Shown one piece after another: positions 961-8,723 of a DNA stretch of 64,000 bases; within the stretch, counting starts at the first letter, position 1, and the number at the start of each line of letters is the position of its first letter. This DNA comes from a phage. Both the position numbers and the translations under genes were made by a program. The notes under the pieces are model-generated. The model saw nothing but the letters and a program-made list of their open reading frames with translations. It ran no database searches and was not told the origin of the DNA. The DNA is taken from sequence record PZ171032.1; one strand, written 5' to 3'.

Positions 961-983
961 AGAAAATCCCCGCCGAAGCGGGG
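961..983 (-). terminator. rho-independent terminator (hairpin CCCCGC-CGAA-GCGGGG followed by U-run on minus strand)
   Basis: Perfect 6-bp GC stem with CGAA tetraloop just downstream of stop of gene 997..1377; AUUUUCU on transcribed strand. Confidence 0.55.
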
Positions 984-1386: not shown

Positions 1387-2571
1387 TTAAGCTTTAGCCA
1401 AAATGGCGCTAAACTCTTCACCAAACTCTTTTACAATCTTCATCAGGTTTGGGTATGCTTTGATCAACTGAGCAACAATCTTGTCACGCCCTTTACCGAT
1501 AAGCAAGGCATTTCCTAAGGCGTTAGGTTTCATCATCGCCATAAAGACTGAGAATACAAAATCTCGGTTCTCGTCCTTGAAATTTTCCCAAAGGAAATCG
1601 AGGAAGTTTGCCACACAGCTAACAAGATCTTCGTCGGAGATACTTGCATTTTCCATCATATTGCGAATAGCGATACAACCTTCAGATCCAAGAATCCACA
1701 AAATGTCTGGCTGCTTAGGACCTACGTATTCTTTGCAGCCACCTGCCATAATCCGACCGATTTCCGGTAAATTACGTTTCTTGGTGTGGTAAGTCCAGAT
1801 CTCTACCGCTGCAGTGTGACCAATAGCACCTTGTAGAAGAACACGGGCCATAGCGTCAGAAATAATACCGCTGTCAAAATCGTGCAAGATGTCAGATGCA
1901 GCAACCCAAGATCGCGGTGTGGCAAAAGATGGACAATTAATCTCAGCCATAGCCTCATAATTATCAATAGCTGAGGGAACTCTTTTCAAATATCCAATTA
2001 CAGAGGAATGCACCCCATTAAGGAATGCGTAGTCCTCAATAAACACCTCTGCATTGCTTGTAACCTCTACAATGATAAAACGGTTAGCCAGAGGGGCTTC
2101 GAGCGCCGAAAGAACCGCACCATCTGTAGAACGGTTACCCGCAGCCACAAAAACAGAACCCTTAGGGAATGCATAGGTGCCGCACTTGTGGTCAAGCATA
2201 ATTTGCATTGCAACCTTTTGCAGGTAGTTATCTGCATGAGTGAGCTCATCCAGAAAGATAATTCCGCTCCAGTCAGGATCCGCAGGCCAAAATTCTGGAA
2301 TTGCAAACACTGTACGTGTAGTTCCATCCGCTTCTACAGGGATAGGTAGCCCAGATAAGTCGGCAGGATCTTTATCTGACAGTCGCACGTCAACAAGGTT
2401 GTCATCTCGCTCACCGAACATATTATCAGCGATCTGCTTCATCACCTGGCTTTTACCCACACCCATTGGTCCCAAAATTAGGACAGATCGGCTATGACGT
2501 TGGGCAAACTGAATAATAGCTGGCAACTCACGGACAGTGATTTGACCACTTTCGAATACGTTTCTTGACAT
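1387..2571 (-). CDS. MoxR-like AAA+ ATPase
   Basis: 394 aa; Walker A LILGPMGVGKSQ, Walker B-like IIFLDELTHA, size and layout typical of AAA_5/MoxR (CobS-like) ATPases. Confidence 0.7.
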   Translation of the reverse strand: MSRNVFESGQITVRELPAIIQFAQRHSRSVLILGPMGVGKSQVMKQIADNMFGERDDNLVDVRLSDKDPADLSGLPIPVEADGTTRTVFAIPEFWPADPDWSGIIFLDELTHADNYLQKVAMQIMLDHKCGTYAFPKGSVFVAAGNRSTDGAVLSALEAPLANRFIIVEVTSNAEVFIEDYAFLNGVHSSVIGYLKRVPSAIDNYEAMAEINCPSFATPRSWVAASDILHDFDSGIISDAMARVLLQGAIGHTAAVEIWTYHTKKRNLPEIGRIMAGGCKEYVGPKQPDILWILGSEGCIAIRNMMENASISDEDLVSCVANFLDFLWENFKDENRDFVFSVFMAMMKPNALGNALLIGKGRDKIVAQLIKAYPNLMKIVKEFGEEFSAILAKA

Positions 2572-2840
2572 TAGTAAAAGTCCTCTACTTGTGTGTAAGT
2601 GTTTTCAAAGTTTTCCAAAACAGATATCACATCGAATCTGTCAATATCATACGTGACTCTCCAGTTGTACGCAACCCTTTCTGCTGTTGCCTCTTCTGGC
2701 GCTAGTCGTCTGCTGGCATAAAAGAGTGTTGGAGTACACTTTCTTGCTTGCCCTCTAACTTTCCCATAATAATATCTGTGAATATCTTTGTCAAAATTTA
2801 ACTCTTTTTCTGCACGAAGTTCATATTGCTGGTATAACAT
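2571..2840 (-). CDS. hypothetical protein
   Basis: 89-aa ORF, start overlaps stop of downstream ATPase gene (translational coupling). Confidence 0.45.
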   Translation of the reverse strand: MLYQQYELRAEKELNFDKDIHRYYYGKVRGQARKCTPTLFYASRRLAPEEATAERVAYNWRVTYDIDRFDVISVLENFENTYTQVEDFY

Positions 2841-2884
2841 CTCTACTACTCCTTAAGCAGCATCCTTGCCGCCATTCCTGCCCA

Positions 2885-3265
2885 CTAAAATGCAGTCCGA
2901 ATCCAGACAAGGTTCTTATCTGCCCAATCATAGAGGCAAGTCATTGCACTATTGAATTGCTCACACGGAGGATAATCTTCTTCCATCTGGCGCATAGCAG
3001 AGCCTTGTGGGTAAAGCTCCCGTGCTGCAAACCACGCGTCGTAGTCATCAACGGTGTCGAAGTAGTATACAACATCCTCTAACTCAGGATCGAACTTTGA
3101 ACTATCAGGATCCAGTTGTTCAGGGAACTTGGAGCGTAACTTGCCAGCTACAATACTTGCCAACTCGCTAACATGCTTATTGTCCCACTCCACTAGCTTC
3201 CCGTCTTCAGTGATGCGTCCTAACCACTGATCATGAAGGTCAACTGTTGTCTTCCACTGGGCCAT
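2885..3265 (-). CDS. hypothetical protein
   Basis: 126-aa ORF in same operon; acidic. Confidence 0.5.
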   Translation of the reverse strand: MAQWKTTVDLHDQWLGRITEDGKLVEWDNKHVSELASIVAGKLRSKFPEQLDPDSSKFDPELEDVVYYFDTVDDYDAWFAARELYPQGSAMRQMEEDYPPCEQFNSAMTCLYDWADKNLVWIRTAF

Positions 3266-3267
3266 TA

Positions 3268-3525
3268 TCAGTCCACCTCTTCTTCTCGTTGTAGTTCAAG
3301 ATACCCGTAGGTCTGGACATCTTCAAGGGTGTGGAACTCCCCATCTGCCGCTAATGCACGAACAACTTGGCACAAAACCTTATGAGGAACTTCATCCAGA
3401 CCAAGATTCAGTGCAGGGAACACCTTATCTAAGTCAACAAAATAAATGAACTGTAGCTCACCAGCTTCAAAAGGTGTATCTTCAATAAACATCTTCTCGG
3501 CATTAGTCAAGATCTGCACTTTCAT
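3268..3525 (-). CDS. hypothetical protein
   Basis: 85-aa ORF, tightly packed with neighbours. Confidence 0.45.
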   Translation of the reverse strand: MKVQILTNAEKMFIEDTPFEAGELQFIYFVDLDKVFPALNLGLDEVPHKVLCQVVRALAADGEFHTLEDVQTYGYLELQREEEVD

Positions 3526-3881
3526 TATTCTACCTCCTCTTCTTTTTCTTCGGCATTAGTTTCATGGCTACCCCACTCCGGAGTTTCCACCTCGATAGTA
3601 AACTCACGCACTACACGGTAATTGCCCATGAAGCGCTCTACTTCGTCAAGGCTTATGGAGAGGCCATTGGCAACCAGGTCTGCAGCACCCTCTTCTACCA
3701 GGTAGTCCAGATTGGCTTCCAGAGCCTCAGGTTCAAACCCTGTCAATGCAATCAGATAACCTTCCCCTTCATCAGGGAGGACAATACAGCCCAATTGATT
3801 TTCTTTAAAAAGGCAGTGACCATCATTATTGATTGGGTGTTCATTGCAGTAAATAGCTGCACGATAAGTAACTTTAGACAT
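3525..3881 (-). CDS. hypothetical acidic protein (start refined to MSKVTYRAA)
   Basis: ORF track 3525..3902; the internal ATG at 3881 is preceded by AAGGAGACC RBS, and the 29-bp initiation segment is repeated in gene 5212..6189. Confidence 0.5.
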   Translation of the reverse strand: MSKVTYRAAIYCNEHPINNDGHCLFKENQLGCIVLPDEGEGYLIALTGFEPEALEANLDYLVEEGAADLVANGLSISLDEVERFMGNYRVVREFTIEVETPEWGSHETNAEEKEEEVE

Positions 3882-3894
3882 CGGTAAGGTCTCC

Positions 3895-4173
3895 TTAGGC
3901 AATTGTCATTTTACATTCTTGAAATTTTAACACAAGACGGTGATTGTGTCTAGTGTCTAAAAAGATTTTTTCAACCATCAGGCACACGGTATAACCGTCC
4001 ATCTTGTTGACAACAAAATCTCCAGGATGAGGGAGGATGTCTCCCGGATTGGGGAAACATAGTCCACTCAGAAAGGCATCGTCAGTGGTGGACTTAATAG
4101 ATTTCCACACACTGTCTGCCTGAACATGTTCACCGACGTAATATACATTACCACATGCCTTCATCATAGTCAA
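3895..4173 (-). CDS. hypothetical protein
   Basis: 92-aa ORF. Confidence 0.45.
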   Translation of the reverse strand: MTMMKACGNVYYVGEHVQADSVWKSIKSTTDDAFLSGLCFPNPGDILPHPGDFVVNKMDGYTVCLMVEKIFLDTRHNHRLVLKFQECKMTIA

Positions 4174-5069
4174 ACCCTCGCATAAATTAAACTTGTATCA
4201 GTATACTTCTTTAATGGGTAAATATCCTGTCCATAGATGCAATCATTAAACACCTCATCTACCCAAAGGCTACACTTATATCCCATCATTTCTAAAACAC
4301 CCATCTCTTCTTCGGTAAACTTATCACCGCTCTTGCAAGATGTCAATACCTCATTCTGAACTCTTGCTACCTCGAAGCGGTTATTGGCAATATCGCTATT
4401 GGCGATCAAATACTCACCTAGAGGGTGTGCGGCATTAAAGATGCACAGTGGACGGCTGACGTAATAGTCTCCGGGTGTATAAAAATTGTTGAGGTCTTTC
4501 ACTAGAACATTCTTATCAGTCACTTCATTTATAACATCATGCATATCGCACATCTTTATATGTTTGAGGATTCCATCCCCCATCACAAAATAAAAACTTG
4601 CTGAGACACTTTCGGCATAGATCTTACTAGATCCGTTGTAGTTGTATTTTACTCGGATGCTAACGGGGGTTTTTCCTGTCGCGTTAGCCATCATCCAAAG
4701 AAATGGCAGCTCATACTTCTCCTCTGAGGAAACAAAAGGTGAGGTAGCCAGAGATCGAAAACCTCCAGAGAAGTTGAAAGTTACAGAACCGCTCCGGCGG
4801 TATGATACCGCGTATTCTACTTTTATATCGACATACCCATTGGAATAGGTGTGTCCTTCATTATCTAAATATGTCCACTTATCAGACCCAGATACCAATC
4901 TACGCTCAATAACCTTCATCACTATAGGAATTAATGGGTTGGTACAAACCGCTTTTGAAGTAGCTTTATCATCTAAAGCCTCGTAAATTGCAGAAAGGAT
5001 GTCCCCAGCTGAAAGATTGGTTGTTATGTCCTGTTTCCACCGCGTACTAAAACTGTTAAGATTTGCCAT
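4170..5069 (-). CDS. hypothetical protein (first gene of leftward early operon)
   Basis: 299-aa ORF; AGGAG RBS; lies immediately downstream of leftward promoter. Confidence 0.55.
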   Translation of the reverse strand: MANLNSFSTRWKQDITTNLSAGDILSAIYEALDDKATSKAVCTNPLIPIVMKVIERRLVSGSDKWTYLDNEGHTYSNGYVDIKVEYAVSYRRSGSVTFNFSGGFRSLATSPFVSSEEKYELPFLWMMANATGKTPVSIRVKYNYNGSSKIYAESVSASFYFVMGDGILKHIKMCDMHDVINEVTDKNVLVKDLNNFYTPGDYYVSRPLCIFNAAHPLGEYLIANSDIANNRFEVARVQNEVLTSCKSGDKFTEEEMGVLEMMGYKCSLWVDEVFNDCIYGQDIYPLKKYTDTSLIYARV

Positions 5070-5109
5070 AAGTAAGTGCTCCTATGTTAGTTTTCTTTCG
5101 AATGGGTGC

Positions 5110-5138
5110 ACTATATTGTGGAGTTAGAGTAAAGTCAA
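5110..5138 (-). promoter_or_regulatory. sigma70-like promoter, leftward (TTGACT-17 bp-TATAGT)
   Basis: On minus strand: -35 TTGACT (plus 5133-5138), 17-bp spacer, -10 TATAGT (plus 5110-5115); upstream of gene 4170..5069. Confidence 0.55.
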
Positions 5139-5151
5139 CACGTTTTTGATG

Positions 5152-5180
5152 TTGACATCTGTTGAGACAATTGATACGAT
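5152..5180 (+). promoter_or_regulatory. sigma70-like promoter, rightward (TTGACA-17 bp-TACGAT)
   Basis: Consensus -35 TTGACA at 5152-5157, 17-bp spacer, -10 TACGAT at 5175-5180. Lies inside the 5' extension of ORF 5146..6189, so the gene more likely starts at 5212. Confidence 0.55.
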
Positions 5181-5211
5181 TTCTTCACTTACAGAGCACG
5201 AGAGACGACTC

Positions 5212-6189
5212 ATGAATCTTGAAAAATATTATACACCAGAAGAGTTAGAGCGCTTGCTCAAAAAATATAGACGCAAACAGAATAACGCACGGAAACGAGA
5301 TATAGAGTTCGACCTGTCATGGGAAGAATACCTCCTATTTGGTAAAAAACTTTTAGGAGATGGAGTATGCGACTATACCCTTATACCTTTTGACATGCAC
5401 ACAGATGAAAACGGGCTGGGGAATCCTTTCTACCCATCTCTGGAGCGGATAGATGATGAAGGTCCTTATGCGGTTGATAACTGTTGTGTGGTGGGATTGA
5501 GATGCAACTCTCTAAAGGACTGTCTGGTAGATAAAAAGACTGCAGTCTTGATTAAAGACGAAACTGATCGAAAAATTGTCCAGCAGATGATGCTCCACCT
5601 GAGCGAAGAGCGTATGGAGAAATTGAAAGGTGATTATACTTTTGAAGATTTCATCTTGCAATATGGAACGGAAGAGGATAAACTAGCACTCTTTGACGAA
5701 GAAGAGGAGGAAGATATGCTACCGATGTCTAAAGTTACTTATCGTGCACCCAAGAAGCACATTTCCGACATTGTAAACGAGCCTATCACAGAAGAGATTG
5801 AAGAAATGACGCAACAGGTGCATGAAGAGGAAAAAGAGACTCAGGAGGTCGAAGAGGAGATTACAGAAGAGGTTCCTGCACTACCTGATGATGTTGAGAT
5901 TGCCAAAGCTTACACTTTCTATTGTCAAACGTTCTACGATGTAGGTATGAAAGTTGATCTGTCGTTCAGCCAATTTAAGAGTTCGTATATTCGCAAATGC
6001 TGTGCTTTAACTGGTGAACGTCTTGGAGCTGGACTTAAACCCCTGTTGGTGACCGACTGGAATAAAGGTTTCACTAAAGGAAACTTTATGGTAGTATCTC
6101 CAATTATGGAGAAAGCTATGACAGATCTTATGAAGACCACCCGCATGACAATGACCGAGTTGGCAGGTATTTTCAAACACGTTAAATAA
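5212..6189 (+). CDS. hypothetical protein with two homologous half-domains; possible internal start at 5716
   Basis: ORF track 5146..6189; start moved to ATG 5212 downstream of promoter. N- and C-halves share a DLSW/DLSF..C..T...VTD/ERID..G...N..VV pattern; acidic linker; internal GAGGAGG RBS + ATG at 5716. Confidence 0.5.
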   Translation: MNLEKYYTPEELERLLKKYRRKQNNARKRDIEFDLSWEEYLLFGKKLLGDGVCDYTLIPFDMHTDENGLGNPFYPSLERIDDEGPYAVDNCCVVGLRCNSLKDCLVDKKTAVLIKDETDRKIVQQMMLHLSEERMEKLKGDYTFEDFILQYGTEEDKLALFDEEEEEDMLPMSKVTYRAPKKHISDIVNEPITEEIEEMTQQVHEEEKETQEVEEEITEEVPALPDDVEIAKAYTFYCQTFYDVGMKVDLSFSQFKSSYIRKCCALTGERLGAGLKPLLVTDWNKGFTKGNFMVVSPIMEKAMTDLMKTTRMTMTELAGIFKHVK

Positions 6190-6201
6190 TGACAGGGGCC
6201 A

Positions 6202-7683
6202 ATGGCCCCTTCTGGAGTTTTAATGGATAGCAGAAGTTCAGAAATCATTGCCTCGCAGAAAGATGATGCCCTGAGAATGTTGCAGGCTGCACGTATGTAT
6301 CTCCTTGAAAAGCTGCCGTTTTATGGCACACTACTGTCAGGGTTGCAGTTCGTAGAAAACCACACATGGTGCTCCACCATGGCAACCGACCATAAACGCA
6401 TCTATTACAGTCCTGAGTTCATTATGGGATTGGCTGATGAGCGCAAGGCTATTCTTAAGGCTTCTCTAACTGACGAGCAGTTTGAGATGGCTGAAGTTTT
6501 CTATTCCCCAAAATCTGTGAAAGAGGTGGCCTTCCTTCTGTCACATGAGGTGGGGCATATTATCTGTGATCATCTAGTCCGTGGTAAAAGCTTTGAGCCG
6601 GAACTGTTCAATATTGCTTGTGATCACGTTATCAACACAGGCCTTGTGGTTGACTTTAGCAAACCTCCTTGTGTTTTCTTCCCGAAGGGGAAAAGCACTA
6701 CGTTCATGAAAGGTAAGCCTTTTGGCTTCTTAGCCAGCTGCTACTGTGACATGAGGTTTCATGGATGGATTGCTGAGAACGTTTATGCAGTTCTTGATAA
6801 GCAAAGAGATCAGAATAACGGTAAAAGTAAGAACGGTAAAGGTGAGAACTCTCAAAGTGATAAGCGACAAACCGATGATCACATGAGTGGGAACGGTGGC
6901 ACCAGTGATAATCTTGGAAAGGCTATGGGGTATGATCAGCCACAACCTGTAATCAGCCAATCTGATAAAGATCAGGCCATGCAGGACTCTGGTGATATGC
7001 TGGAGGCAGCAATGCAAGCTTCCGGAGGTCGTTGCCCTGAGGCGGTGCGTGAGTTTGTCAAGAACAGGGGTAAGCCTGTAATCAACTATATAGACATCAT
7101 TAAGCAACGCATGTTGTCTAAACGAAAGGCTGAACTGACCTACAGAAAACCTGGTCGCCGATCTGGGTCTTTGACCAGCACAATGCGAAAAGTTGGGGCT
7201 ATAAACAAGAACCAGCACGTTATTGTTCCCGGTCGTAATCCGGAAAACACCATAGATATTGTTGTAGCTTTAGACGTTTCTGGCTCGATCTCTCAAAGAA
7301 CTTTAAAGAAAATGTTCAATGAAATCACCGGATTGTGCAATCTGTATAAAGAGTTTAAGGTTACAATGTTCTGTTGGTCAACTGAGGTTGGAGAGGTTAA
7401 AGTATACACTCGCGGTAACATAGATGAGATGATCAACTATGAGGTCCACTCAACATGGGGCACAACAGCTGCTTGCGTGTTCGAGTATCTAGATGCCAAC
7501 ATACCAAATGCAAAAGATGTCATCGTATTGACCGACCTATACTTTGAGCATAACTTTGAACAAAAGGCTGTTGACAACAAGTGGAAAAAGTACGATACTT
7601 TATGGGTTCTCACCGAAGGGTATAATAAAAATTATATCCCTAGCTTTGGGAAAACTGTGGAATTAATCGAGTACGCTAAGTAA
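6202..7683 (+). CDS. VWA-domain protein with N-terminal HExxH metallopeptidase-like domain (DUF2201-like)
   Basis: 493 aa; HEVGHIICDH zinc-peptidase-like motif near N-terminus; C-terminal IDIVVALDVSGSIS (DxSxS MIDAS motif of von Willebrand A domains). Confidence 0.65.
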   Translation: MAPSGVLMDSRSSEIIASQKDDALRMLQAARMYLLEKLPFYGTLLSGLQFVENHTWCSTMATDHKRIYYSPEFIMGLADERKAILKASLTDEQFEMAEVFYSPKSVKEVAFLLSHEVGHIICDHLVRGKSFEPELFNIACDHVINTGLVVDFSKPPCVFFPKGKSTTFMKGKPFGFLASCYCDMRFHGWIAENVYAVLDKQRDQNNGKSKNGKGENSQSDKRQTDDHMSGNGGTSDNLGKAMGYDQPQPVISQSDKDQAMQDSGDMLEAAMQASGGRCPEAVREFVKNRGKPVINYIDIIKQRMLSKRKAELTYRKPGRRSGSLTSTMRKVGAINKNQHVIVPGRNPENTIDIVVALDVSGSISQRTLKKMFNEITGLCNLYKEFKVTMFCWSTEVGEVKVYTRGNIDEMINYEVHSTWGTTAACVFEYLDANIPNAKDVIVLTDLYFEHNFEQKAVDNKWKKYDTLWVLTEGYNKNYIPSFGKTVELIEYAK

Positions 7684-7698
7684 GAGAGGAGGTTATTT

Positions 7699-7962
7699 AT
7701 GGCAACAGAGTTAAAATTTGCATCAAACCGTAAAACTAAGAAGTATCTGTCCTCAGTAGCTCCAGGCACTGTGGTGATGTTTGTTGATGAACTTGGGGAT
7801 GTGAATACAGCACTTGTTGTAAAATCACATCCTGCAAACATATATGTTGGGGTATTTGACCTGTTCAGAAAGGTGTTTGTAGAACTGCCTCACAGTTTGG
7901 TTGTTACAGAAATGGATGCCTGCATAGAAATTCTTGGCGAAGTTATGGTGGAGGAACAATAA
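7699..7962 (+). CDS. small protein, tandem paralog family member 1 of 4
   Basis: 87 aa; strong GAGGAGG RBS; shares K..GTVV...ILGE pattern with next genes. Confidence 0.6.
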   Translation: MATELKFASNRKTKKYLSSVAPGTVVMFVDELGDVNTALVVKSHPANIYVGVFDLFRKVFVELPHSLVVTEMDACIEILGEVMVEEQ

Positions 7963-8225
7963 TGGCTACCAGCATTGTATTCAATTCTAAGGTGAAGAAC
8001 AAAAAGCGTGCAGACAGTTTTCCGTGTGGGACCGTGGTAAGTTGCGACGGAGACGGCATTCAAAACATAGTTATGATTGTCAAAACAGGAGAACATTGTG
8101 TGTGGGGGTTCGATTTAGAAAATAATGAGTTGTACGATCTGCCGCCAAACATGAAAGTTACAGAGCTTGACACCAAAATTACCATCCTTGGAGAGACAAG
8201 CTATTCAAAAGAAGGAGGAGAATAA
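7962..8225 (+). CDS. small protein, tandem paralog family member 2 of 4
   Basis: 87 aa; ATGA start/stop overlap with member 1; GGAGG RBS; conserved CGTVV and ITILGE motifs. Confidence 0.6.
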   Translation: MATSIVFNSKVKNKKRADSFPCGTVVSCDGDGIQNIVMIVKTGEHCVWGFDLENNELYDLPPNMKVTELDTKITILGETSYSKEGGE

Positions 8226-8488
8226 TGACCACAAAAATCACTATCGCAGAACCGAAAGCTAACACTCAGCCTATCGAAAAGTTTAAGTGCGGTGAGGTGG
8301 TAACATTCACACCAGATAATGAAGATGCTAAGATTTTCGCAATGGTCACAGCTGAGTGGATGTGTGACAACACCACACAGGTTCTGCGTTTTGACACCTA
8401 TCTTACCGATGAAATCAGGAACGACAAGATTGTGACTGGTGTGGATACTGAGATTGTTTTCTACAAGAGCTTTTTAGAGGGTTTCTGA
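8225..8488 (+). CDS. small protein, tandem paralog family member 3 of 4
   Basis: 87 aa; ATGA overlap; AAGGAGG RBS; KCGEVVTF motif. Confidence 0.55.
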   Translation: MTTKITIAEPKANTQPIEKFKCGEVVTFTPDNEDAKIFAMVTAEWMCDNTTQVLRFDTYLTDEIRNDKIVTGVDTEIVFYKSFLEGF

Positions 8489-8489
8489 T

Positions 8490-8723
8490 ATGGCAAAAAT
8501 TAGAAAATTATCTAGCAATCAGGTTGTGAAAGACTTCGAATCTGGAGAGATTCTTTATGTTCGTGATGCAGATGACGAAGGTGAAGATCTCGTTATGTTG
8601 GTGGGGCACGCTGAGGACGGATGCATCCAAGCTGTTTTTCTTGAAACAGCTATGGTGCACTGGATAGAGCTGGACCTGAAAGCACGAAAACCTAAAGCAG
8701 AAATCCTGATTTACGAAGATTAA
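8490..8723 (+). CDS. small protein, tandem paralog family member 4 of 4 (divergent)
   Basis: 77 aa; GAGGG RBS; same size class, weaker similarity. Confidence 0.5.
   Translation: MAKIRKLSSNQVVKDFESGEILYVRDADDEGEDLVMLVGHAEDGCIQAVFLETAMVHWIELDLKARKPKAEILIYED

Follow-up and report, generated by a model that had tools for sequence, protein, structure and literature searches.

MoxR-type AAA+ ATPases in company with VWA-domain proteins are known from several settings. Chromosomal MoxR(AAA_3)-DUF2201 operons, presumably COG0714/COG3864, occur in bacteria such as Sulfurimonas indica, NorQ-NorD and CbbQ-CbbO are maturases of nitric oxide reductase and Rubisco, respectively, and Midasin/Rea1, with a MIDAS of its own, functions in eukaryotic ribosome assembly. 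The vWA-MoxR-VMAP ternary systems, which belong to bacterial defence, share the MoxR plus vWA conflict core (Kaur et al. 2020, PMC7159879). The same two families as in the locus studied here make up the group 2.2 'chaperone-cochaperone' pair of jumbo phages, in which an N-terminal metallopeptidase is fused to the vWA domain (Iyer et al. 2021, PMC7824862). We have analysed the 64,000-nucleotide (nt) stretch of sequence record PZ171032.1, called the window below, in which a MoxR-type ATPase and a partner with metallopeptidase-like and VWA domains (VWA-peptidase) are encoded by the following open reading frames (ORFs):

1387..2571, minus strand: MoxR-type ATPase, 394 amino acids (aa)
6202..7683, plus strand: VWA-peptidase, open over this range, 493 aa from the first ATG

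The ATPase ORF exists exactly as the first-pass annotation had described it, and the two genes, said there to be about 3.6 kb apart on opposite strands, have their starts about 3.65 kb apart. It is rather probable that this split pair is a conserved phage MoxR/VWA remodelling system, dispensable on Escherichia coli K-12, which serves as a host-specific counter-defence against the two-gene defence system DS-28.

Partnership of the two proteins and their separation

That the two proteins are partners is strongly indicated by the conserved adjacency of their genes elsewhere. Eighty viral loci were retrieved from IMG/VR with the ATPase alignment and scanned with hidden Markov models (HMMs) of both families. 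Both genes were present in 69 of them, and in 67 of these 69 the VWA gene stood immediately downstream on the same strand, with a gap of -58 to 517 nt. Ten of the 80 loci end at most 330 nt from the ATPase gene, and in the remaining one a radical-SAM-like ORF (CxxxCxxC; L049:2900-4004) lies directly downstream of the ATPase and the locus stops before any visible partner. The only split loci among the 69 were one from an rV5-like phage (L011, 98% identical) and one from a Klebsiella BIS47-like phage (L012, 53% identical). A further 80 loci came from bacterial genomes, mostly of Campylobacterota; 73 contained both genes, always on the same strand (73/73) and directly adjacent in 63 cases. When the other loci with both genes, phage and bacterial, were pooled, the VWA gene was found downstream on the ATPase strand in 140 of 142, usually adjacent, which bears out the earlier claim that such partners normally sit side by side in one operon. 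ATPase relatives with 34-39% identity were likewise located directly upstream of a DUF2201_N plus DUF2201 gene, on the same strand, in large-phage and Vequintavirinae-like contigs.

The same association could be followed in deposited phage genomes, where the ATPase family was detected in 748 records and the VWA-peptidase family in 624. The numbers of records per genus were equal in Escherichia (211/211), Pectobacterium (26/26) and Cronobacter (17/17), the records with both families include N4-like podoviruses and genes 563/564 of the jumbo phage 121Q, and the identity levels of the two families drop in parallel across the lineages. MoxR/VWA pairs are thus among the most widespread uncharacterised two-gene modules of virulent phages. 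In the window phage the two proteins might also co-operate physically.

The window belongs to an rV5-like Vequintavirus, a 136-kb myovirus, with 99% identity to rV5_ev146, Murica, LL12 and CM1 over the first 9 kb compared. This first 9 kb matched 125 phage records, 114 of them with at least 80% query coverage. Sixteen MG0656xx records named 'Campylobacter phage' (host C. jejuni) show 98-99% identity to the E. coli rV5-like phages here; probably the host was mislabelled or the phage stocks carried a contaminant. In Bas54 (Escherichia phage MaxBurger, MZ501093) the genes are arranged as in the window, and the window ATPase and VWA-peptidase correspond to its gp0063 (100% identity) and gp0055 (99% identity), respectively.

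The split arrangement is derived and confined to the rV5/BIS47 lineage. In relatives of the adjacent type (L009 and L013) a leftward hydrolase gene is followed by the divergent promoter and by the rightward ATPase and VWA genes, while in the window and in L012 the hydrolase and ATPase genes are both leftward, and beyond the divergent promoter stand the rightward Srd-like and VWA genes. The orientation of the hydrolase and VWA genes relative to each other is unchanged between the two arrangements, and the ATPase-bearing segment alone is flipped. One inversion, with breakpoints between the partner genes and in the old leftward arm, would explain the split; the small genes in between have diverged too far to be followed. 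Such an inversion, spanning the divergent promoter in a common ancestor of the rV5-like and BIS47-like phages, would have carried the ATPase gene into the leftward arm and left the VWA-peptidase gene in the rightward one. Detection of partners on the basis of operons misses this lineage.

Both genes have been under strong purifying selection after the split. At 95% identity or above, 118 records of the rV5 lineage contain the ATPase and 119 the VWA-peptidase. The ratio of nonsynonymous to synonymous differences per site (pN/pS) is 0-0.03 for the ATPase and 0.03-0.05 for the VWA-peptidase, and 0.13-0.42 for the Srd-like gene, which evolves much faster than its neighbours (pN/pS 0.42 against Bas54, at pS 0.21). 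Compared with Bas54, the ATPase arm has a pS of 0.042 and not a single amino acid change, and the arm with the VWA-peptidase and Srd-like genes has a pS of 0.21. The recent histories of the two arms thus differ, which suggests that rV5-like phages have recombined at a point between the two partner genes.

The assignment of the ATPase itself relies on its homologues, on a profile and on a structure model, since its own sequence remains below every Pfam cut-off. As a single sequence it stayed under all Pfam, NCBIfam and PADLOC thresholds (AAA_5 at E=0.0075, 16.7 bits against the required 22; bpMoxR at E=0.012), and its phmmer matches in the PDB were confined to the P-loop. It does match PHROG 1297, 'ATPase', at 2e-110. 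The following elements were recognized in its sequence and AlphaFold2 model:

aa 34-41, nt 2449-2472, minus strand: Walker A, GPMGVGKS, with invariant G37, G39, K40 and S41
aa 104-109, nt 2245-2262, minus strand: Walker B, IIFLDE, with invariant D108 and E109
N146, sensor 1, invariant
R164 in 'PLANRF', arginine finger, invariant
R220 in 'ATPRSW', sensor 2, invariant
aa 75-90: helix-2 insert hairpin, in the AlphaFold2 model
aa ~265-394: extra C-terminal helical domain

In an alignment of 22 sequences with identities down to 29%, the full AAA+ catalytic set (Walker A and B, sensor 1, arginine finger and sensor 2) was invariant in all 22. The invariant non-catalytic residues (D61, R63, L64, D71, G74, A90, P92, P96, D98, P99) are located in or around the helix-2 insert. 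Nine of the 22 matched AAA_3 or AAA_5 at E of 1e-3 or better (best 2e-9), and the relative from Sulfurimonas indica exceeded the AAA_3 gathering score. A homologue search returned 5,711 relatives, those of about 34% identity (E ~1e-44) carrying AAA_3, AAA_5 and sometimes bpMoxR, and the ATPase profile gave as its best PDB matches the AAA modules of Midasin (E ~1e-10). Helix-2 insert and pre-sensor-1 hairpins are the mark of the clade that includes dynein, midasin, the chelatases and McrB. In the AlphaFold2 model (pLDDT 83, pTM 0.73) DSSP places a predicted hairpin (75-81/84-90) between beta2 and the Walker B strand, and short predicted strands at 129-134, ahead of the sensor-1 strand, would form the pre-sensor-1 hairpin. 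The 17 best Foldseek matches of this model in the PDB were NorQ and CbbQ2 (probability 1.0, E of 1e-6 or better), with target-normalised TM scores of 0.57-0.63, so that structure prediction, which had been suggested as a check, favours the MoxR fold as far as the model can be relied on. The 394-aa protein is thus supported as a MoxR-type AAA+ ATPase. The original term had been 'MoxR/CobS-like', of which the MoxR part was sustained by the catalytic motifs, the profile and the NorQ/CbbQ2 matches, and the CobS-like part was not, there being no CobS profile match.

The domains of the VWA-peptidase were recognized directly from its own sequence. Pfam detected DUF2201_N (E=9e-28, 98.1 bits against a cut-off of 23.2) followed in N-to-C order by DUF2201 (E=3.4e-11, 43.8 bits against 26.4), and both were present in all 29 homologues. 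The suggested check by profile HMMs thus confirmed the two DUF2201 domains and left AAA_5 sub-threshold for the ATPase itself. In the PDB the single sequence matched nothing, and its profile matched the MIDAS segment only. Concerning the start codon, the ORF from 6202 held, its start most likely did not. ATG 6202 is part of the loop formed by a GC-rich hairpin (6194-6210) and is not preceded by a Shine-Dalgarno sequence, while ATG 6223, the start chosen in GenBank records, has GGAG 5 nt upstream. We therefore prefer 6223, and most likely the protein has 486 aa instead of 493. In this numbering its features are:

aa 108-112, nt 6544-6558, plus strand: HEVGH (HExxH)
D134, nt 6622-6624, plus strand: candidate third ligand of the zinc site
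aa 200-228, plus strand: disordered Gly/Asn/Lys-rich stretch
about aa 340-486, nt 7240-7680, plus strand: VWA domain
D351-x-S353-G-S355 (DVSGS), nt 7273-7287, plus strand: MIDAS, completed by T414 and D438

The MIDAS and the HExxH motif are invariant in the family alignment, and the VWA fold was found with a complete MIDAS (DxSxS...T...D). The combination of an N-terminal HEVGH with a C-terminal DxSxS MIDAS VWA domain, noticed in the first-pass annotation, could be located at aa 108-112 and 351-355, with DUF2201_N and DUF2201 above their gathering scores. Judged by its HExxH motif, the N-terminal domain is a putative zincin-like metallopeptidase. The low-confidence linker that joins the zincin-like and VWA domains contains a conserved basic motif, Y-R-[RK]-P-x-R-R-S (Y-R-K-P-G-R-R-S in the window; nt 7141-7164, aa 307-314); its R312 is near-invariant in the whole family, and the motif might be inserted into the pore or serve as a site of autoprocessing.

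Both genes already have labels in GenBank, 'MoxR ATPase' for the first and 'putative metallopeptidase' or 'VWA-like domain-containing protein' for the second. The PHROGs of the DUF2201 family (PHROG 1314) and of the Srd-like proteins (PHROG 3118) both carry the label 'HNH endonuclease', and many phage entries in RefSeq and GenBank have taken it over for the VWA-peptidase gene; Pfam detects no HNH domain in the VWA-peptidase or in the Srd-like protein.

Probable counter-defence against DS-28

The functional data come from a preprint on HIDEN-SEQ, transposon sequencing of Bas54 (10.1101/2025.11.20.689424), from which the conditional essentiality and the link to DS-28 are taken. DS-28, provisionally called ANEX, has been validated as a system of two genes, which encode a small hypothetical protein and a HEPN-family nuclease (DefensePredictor, PMC13092281, supplement). 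According to the preprint, the gp0063 knockout of Bas54 is sensitive to DS-28, and both gp0063 and gp0055 fall into the non-essential class on K-12, insertions having been found at 94% of their TA sites. The preprint values for K-12 against CFE311, a natural host carrying DS-28, are as follows:

Bas54 0063, MoxR ATPase: log2 fold change (log2FC) -7.23, adjusted p 0
Bas54 0140, unknown function: log2FC -5.48, adjusted p 0
Bas54 0055, putative metallopeptidase: log2FC -2.20, p 0.0009, adjusted p 0.009

The main text of the preprint pairs the ATPase with the unlinked bas54_0140 as the counter-defence genes against DS-28 and is silent on gene 0055 and its depletion. A search of the window for bas54_0140, which encodes 99 aa with no known domain, did not find it. 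The link of gp0055 is transposon depletion on the natural host, not an experiment with cloned DS-28. The neighbours of gp0055 (0053, 0054 and 0056-0062) had log2FC values of -0.08 to +0.79 on CFE311, and since they were unaffected, the depletion of gp0055 is not a polar effect. In Extended Data Table 8 of the preprint the sheet 'resampling_K-12_vs_CFE303' repeats the command line and numbers of CFE311 (sheets S6 and S7), and the true CFE303 table is missing from the supplement. Taken together, these data favour the suggestion, made before from the sequence, of a host-takeover or anti-defence module: the identical ATPase of Bas54 is needed against DS-28 according to the preprint, and gp0055 is also depleted on CFE311.

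The main competing explanation is that the ATPase counters DS-28 independently of the VWA-peptidase, either by itself or together with gp0140 (99 aa), in which case the split would be a functional uncoupling and the role of the partner separate or minor. Several observations speak for it and weigh against a joint action of the pair. The depletion of the two genes differs about 30-fold (log2FC -7.23 vs -2.20), the preprint couples the ATPase with bas54_0140 and not with gp0055, the two arms differ in recent history (pS 0.04 vs 0.21 against Bas54), and the rV5/BIS47 lineage is the sole one in which the genes are not co-directional. Furthermore, 16 of about 185 non-structural genes were significantly depleted on CFE311, and therefore the depletion of gp0055 is suggestive rather than decisive. 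On the other hand, essentially all rV5-like genomes have kept both genes (118 and 119 records at 95% identity or above), with a pN/pS of at most 0.05 for each, gp0055 was significantly depleted on CFE311 and its neighbours were not, the pair stands together in 140 of 142 other loci, and characterised MoxR ATPases act via VWA partners. On this evidence we regard an ATPase working without its partner as unlikely.

Virion assembly is the only published functional proposal for the pair, and it is at odds with the transposon data for this phage. As a chaperone-protease of virion assembly or maturation the pair would follow what was proposed for the homologous group 2.2 jumbo-phage pair, by analogy with MoxR-vWA tail assembly in the Acidianus two-tailed virus (PMC7824862), and both window proteins are indeed homologous to 121Q genes 563/564. 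The proposal fits poorly, because both genes are dispensable on K-12, with insertions at 94% of TA sites, unlike structural genes, and because they are located in the early or host-takeover region between rIIA/rIIB and the Srd-like gene, behind sigma70-like promoters. Moreover, the ATPase is conditionally essential only on the defence-carrying host. A role in the virion is in our opinion very improbable.

The pair might also be a maturation factor for a phage client, for example gp0140 as the actual inhibitor of DS-28, and make no direct attack on the host. The unlinked genes 0063 and 0140 give one DS-28 phenotype, and characterised MoxR/VWA systems are client-specific maturases (Rubisco, nitric oxide reductase, CO dehydrogenase), both of which would suit such a role; its weak point is that the pair also occurs in Campylobacterota chromosomes and, among phages, in hundreds that belong to unrelated families (N4-like, jumbo). 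We hold a function restricted to client maturation to be quite improbable.

Returning to the split pair as a remodelling system directed against DS-28, a mechanism can be proposed in conditional terms. The ATPase would be its hexameric AAA+ motor half, the C-terminal VWA/MIDAS domain would dock on the motor and grip an acidic residue of the target through a bridging metal, and the N-terminal HExxH zincin-like domain could cut the held protein. The docking may resemble that of NorQ-NorD by analogy; in NorQD it is of the 'finger-in-pore' type, and its authors presume this mode to be general. The invariant residues between D61 and P99 at the helix-2 insert would fit a conserved docking surface. 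Both genes might still be transcribed early from the same promoter region by the host RNA polymerase, and the ATPase would be needed to overcome DS-28, with a contribution from the VWA-peptidase. The target might be DS-28 or a client protein of the phage, for example gp0140, and proteolysis of the target, like the early timing, is to be understood as a presumed step. A more specific version, in which the pair is an ATP-driven capture-and-cleave or dismantling machine that neutralises the HEPN-nuclease abortive-infection system DS-28, directly or by maturing gp0140, is tentative and on the whole somewhat doubtful. If true, an anti-immune role would be established for a MoxR/VWA system for the first time, and the homologous pairs of several hundred phages with sequenced genomes (rV5-like, N4-like and Rak2/121Q-like jumbo phages) might do the same job. 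Bas54 or rV5 on E. coli K-12 with the cloned two-gene defence system offers a tractable system for such studies.

Promoters and neighbouring elements

The region between and around the two genes contains the following candidate signals:

5110..5138, minus strand: leftward sigma70-like promoter, TTGACT, 17 nt, TATAGT (10/12 in the consensus scan)
5152..5180, plus strand: rightward sigma70-like promoter, TTGACA, 17 nt, TG-extended TACGAT (10/12 with TG in the consensus scan)
968..983, minus strand: terminator-like GC hairpin with a T-rich tail, from a scan; an ARNold terminator stands at the same place in phage Gotham
6194..6210, no strand assigned: GC-rich palindrome AGGGGCCAATGGCCCCT between the Srd-like and VWA-peptidase genes, with ATG 6202 in its loop

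The consensus scan returned 20 sigma70-like sites where 15.4 were expected. In phage Gotham promoters are annotated at positions matching both the leftward and the rightward site, the leftward one by PhagePromoter. The leftward unit, with the promoter 5110..5138 at its head, consists of eight genes, the seventh of which is the ATPase gene, and it probably ends at the hairpin 968..983, after the gene downstream of the ATPase. In the rightward unit the Srd-like gene (5212-6189) comes first and the VWA-peptidase gene second. That both partners are driven from the common divergent promoter region, with early timing, is plausible because of the consensus matches and of the neighbours (rIIA and the Srd-like anti-sigma gene). 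Literature searches found no transcriptomic or virion-proteomic data usable for these genes, and likewise nothing on rV5 together with MoxR. The palindrome at 6194-6210 may be an attenuator, an RNA-processing site or a stability element.

The best sigma70 match of the region is located elsewhere, at 2766-2794 on the minus strand (TTGACA-17-TATTAT, 11/12), inside an 89-aa gene and some 195 nt ahead of the start of the ATPase gene; the match may reflect an internal promoter of this gene or have arisen by chance. The Srd-like 'anti-sigma' gene (5212-6189, plus strand) matches PHROGs for the T4 Srd anti-sigma factor and sigma70 decoy. Its start is probably ATG 5212 and not TTG 5146, since the ORF start at TTG 5146 overlaps the promoter.

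A perfect 29-nt inverted repeat, TACCGATGTCTAAAGTTACTTATCGTGCA, at 3858-3886 and 5720-5748, with 1833 nt between its arms, flanks the divergent promoter and lies on the coding strand of both genes that contain it. The left copy covers the annotated ATG and the first 7 codons (MSKVTYRA) of a 118-aa gene (3525-3881, minus strand), and the right copy is an in-frame internal MSKVTYRA of the Srd-like gene, just past an acidic run and GGAGG. LL12 and Gotham have the repeat without a mismatch; Bas54 and L011 lack its copy in the Srd-like gene, and in the split L012 neither copy could be detected, for which reasons we rejected it as a trace left by the inversion. A partial duplication, gene conversion or a shared translation-initiation region might account for it.

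Directly 3' of the VWA-peptidase gene four small genes (7699-8723, plus strand; 87, 87, 87 and 77 aa) have the look of tandem paralogues. Identity is 38% between the first two and 15-22% for the others, which share length and pattern, and the Bas54 counterparts of the four show no depletion on CFE311. On the minus strand the 299-aa protein at 4170-5069, widely annotated as 'putative alpha 1-3 fucosyltransferase', had no match in Pfam, NCBIfam or PADLOC, and this label looks unsupported.

Comparison with known systems

The gain over existing knowledge is modest. The interpretation is supported, its novelty is low: the genes were already annotated, this type of pair has been described and the counter-defence role of the ATPase is in the preprint. 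New are the quantified, near-universal adjacency of the two genes with their separation as a derived state in the rV5/BIS47 lineage, the strong purifying selection on both halves after the split, and the depletion of the partner gene as well on the DS-28-carrying host. A conserved, protease-bearing partner across the promoter turns an isolated genetic result on DS-28 into a testable two-component mechanism.

Two families of systems were considered and set aside. As to the CobS/CobT cobaltochelatase, no CobS or chelatase family appeared among the Pfam, NCBIfam and PDB matches, and the partner is a DUF2201 protein and not CobT. Concerning the vWA-MoxR-VMAP systems, occasional metallopeptidase effectors are a further point of likeness, but these bacterial defence systems are defined by VMAP as a third component, and their vWA proteins bear arrays of effectors at the N-terminus (PMC7159879); no VMAP-like gene stands beside either partner in the window, bpMoxR is weak (E=0.012), and PADLOC gave no significant match.

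NorD and CbbO are devoid of a peptidase domain and serve a metabolic client, and compared to NorQ/CbbQ the phage ATPase has an additional C-terminal helical domain of about 130 aa, at 15-23% sequence identity. Midasin/Rea1 unites six AAA modules in one giant polypeptide, lacks a protease and has an unrelated function. The cellular MoxR-DUF2201 operons, such as that of Sulfurimonas indica, contain the pair with its gene order conserved, the two genes overlapping or abutting; they differ in their chromosomal, non-prophage setting and shorter proteins, with 33-38% identity over the AAA core. Before the pair of Sulfurimonas indica stands a 420-aa ORF (L164:6685-7947, plus strand) with no Pfam match, the end of which overlaps the ATPase start, and which may be a third component of the cellular version.

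The jumbo-phage pair is of the same two families, and the window proteins match 121Q genes 563/564 by tblastn (3e-26 and 7e-19), PBECO4 being also matched. Its genes are adjacent and virion assembly is proposed for them (PMC7824862), in contrast to the pair of the window, which is split, dispensable on K-12 and linked to counter-defence. The adjacency that characterises the pair of Iyer et al. (2021) is lost here, the genes standing on opposite strands in a derived arrangement, and the same holds for BIS47-like phages. The protein encoded by Bas54 gp0063 is identical and stands in identical synteny; the preprint treats this ATPase as a stand-alone factor beside the unlinked gp0140.

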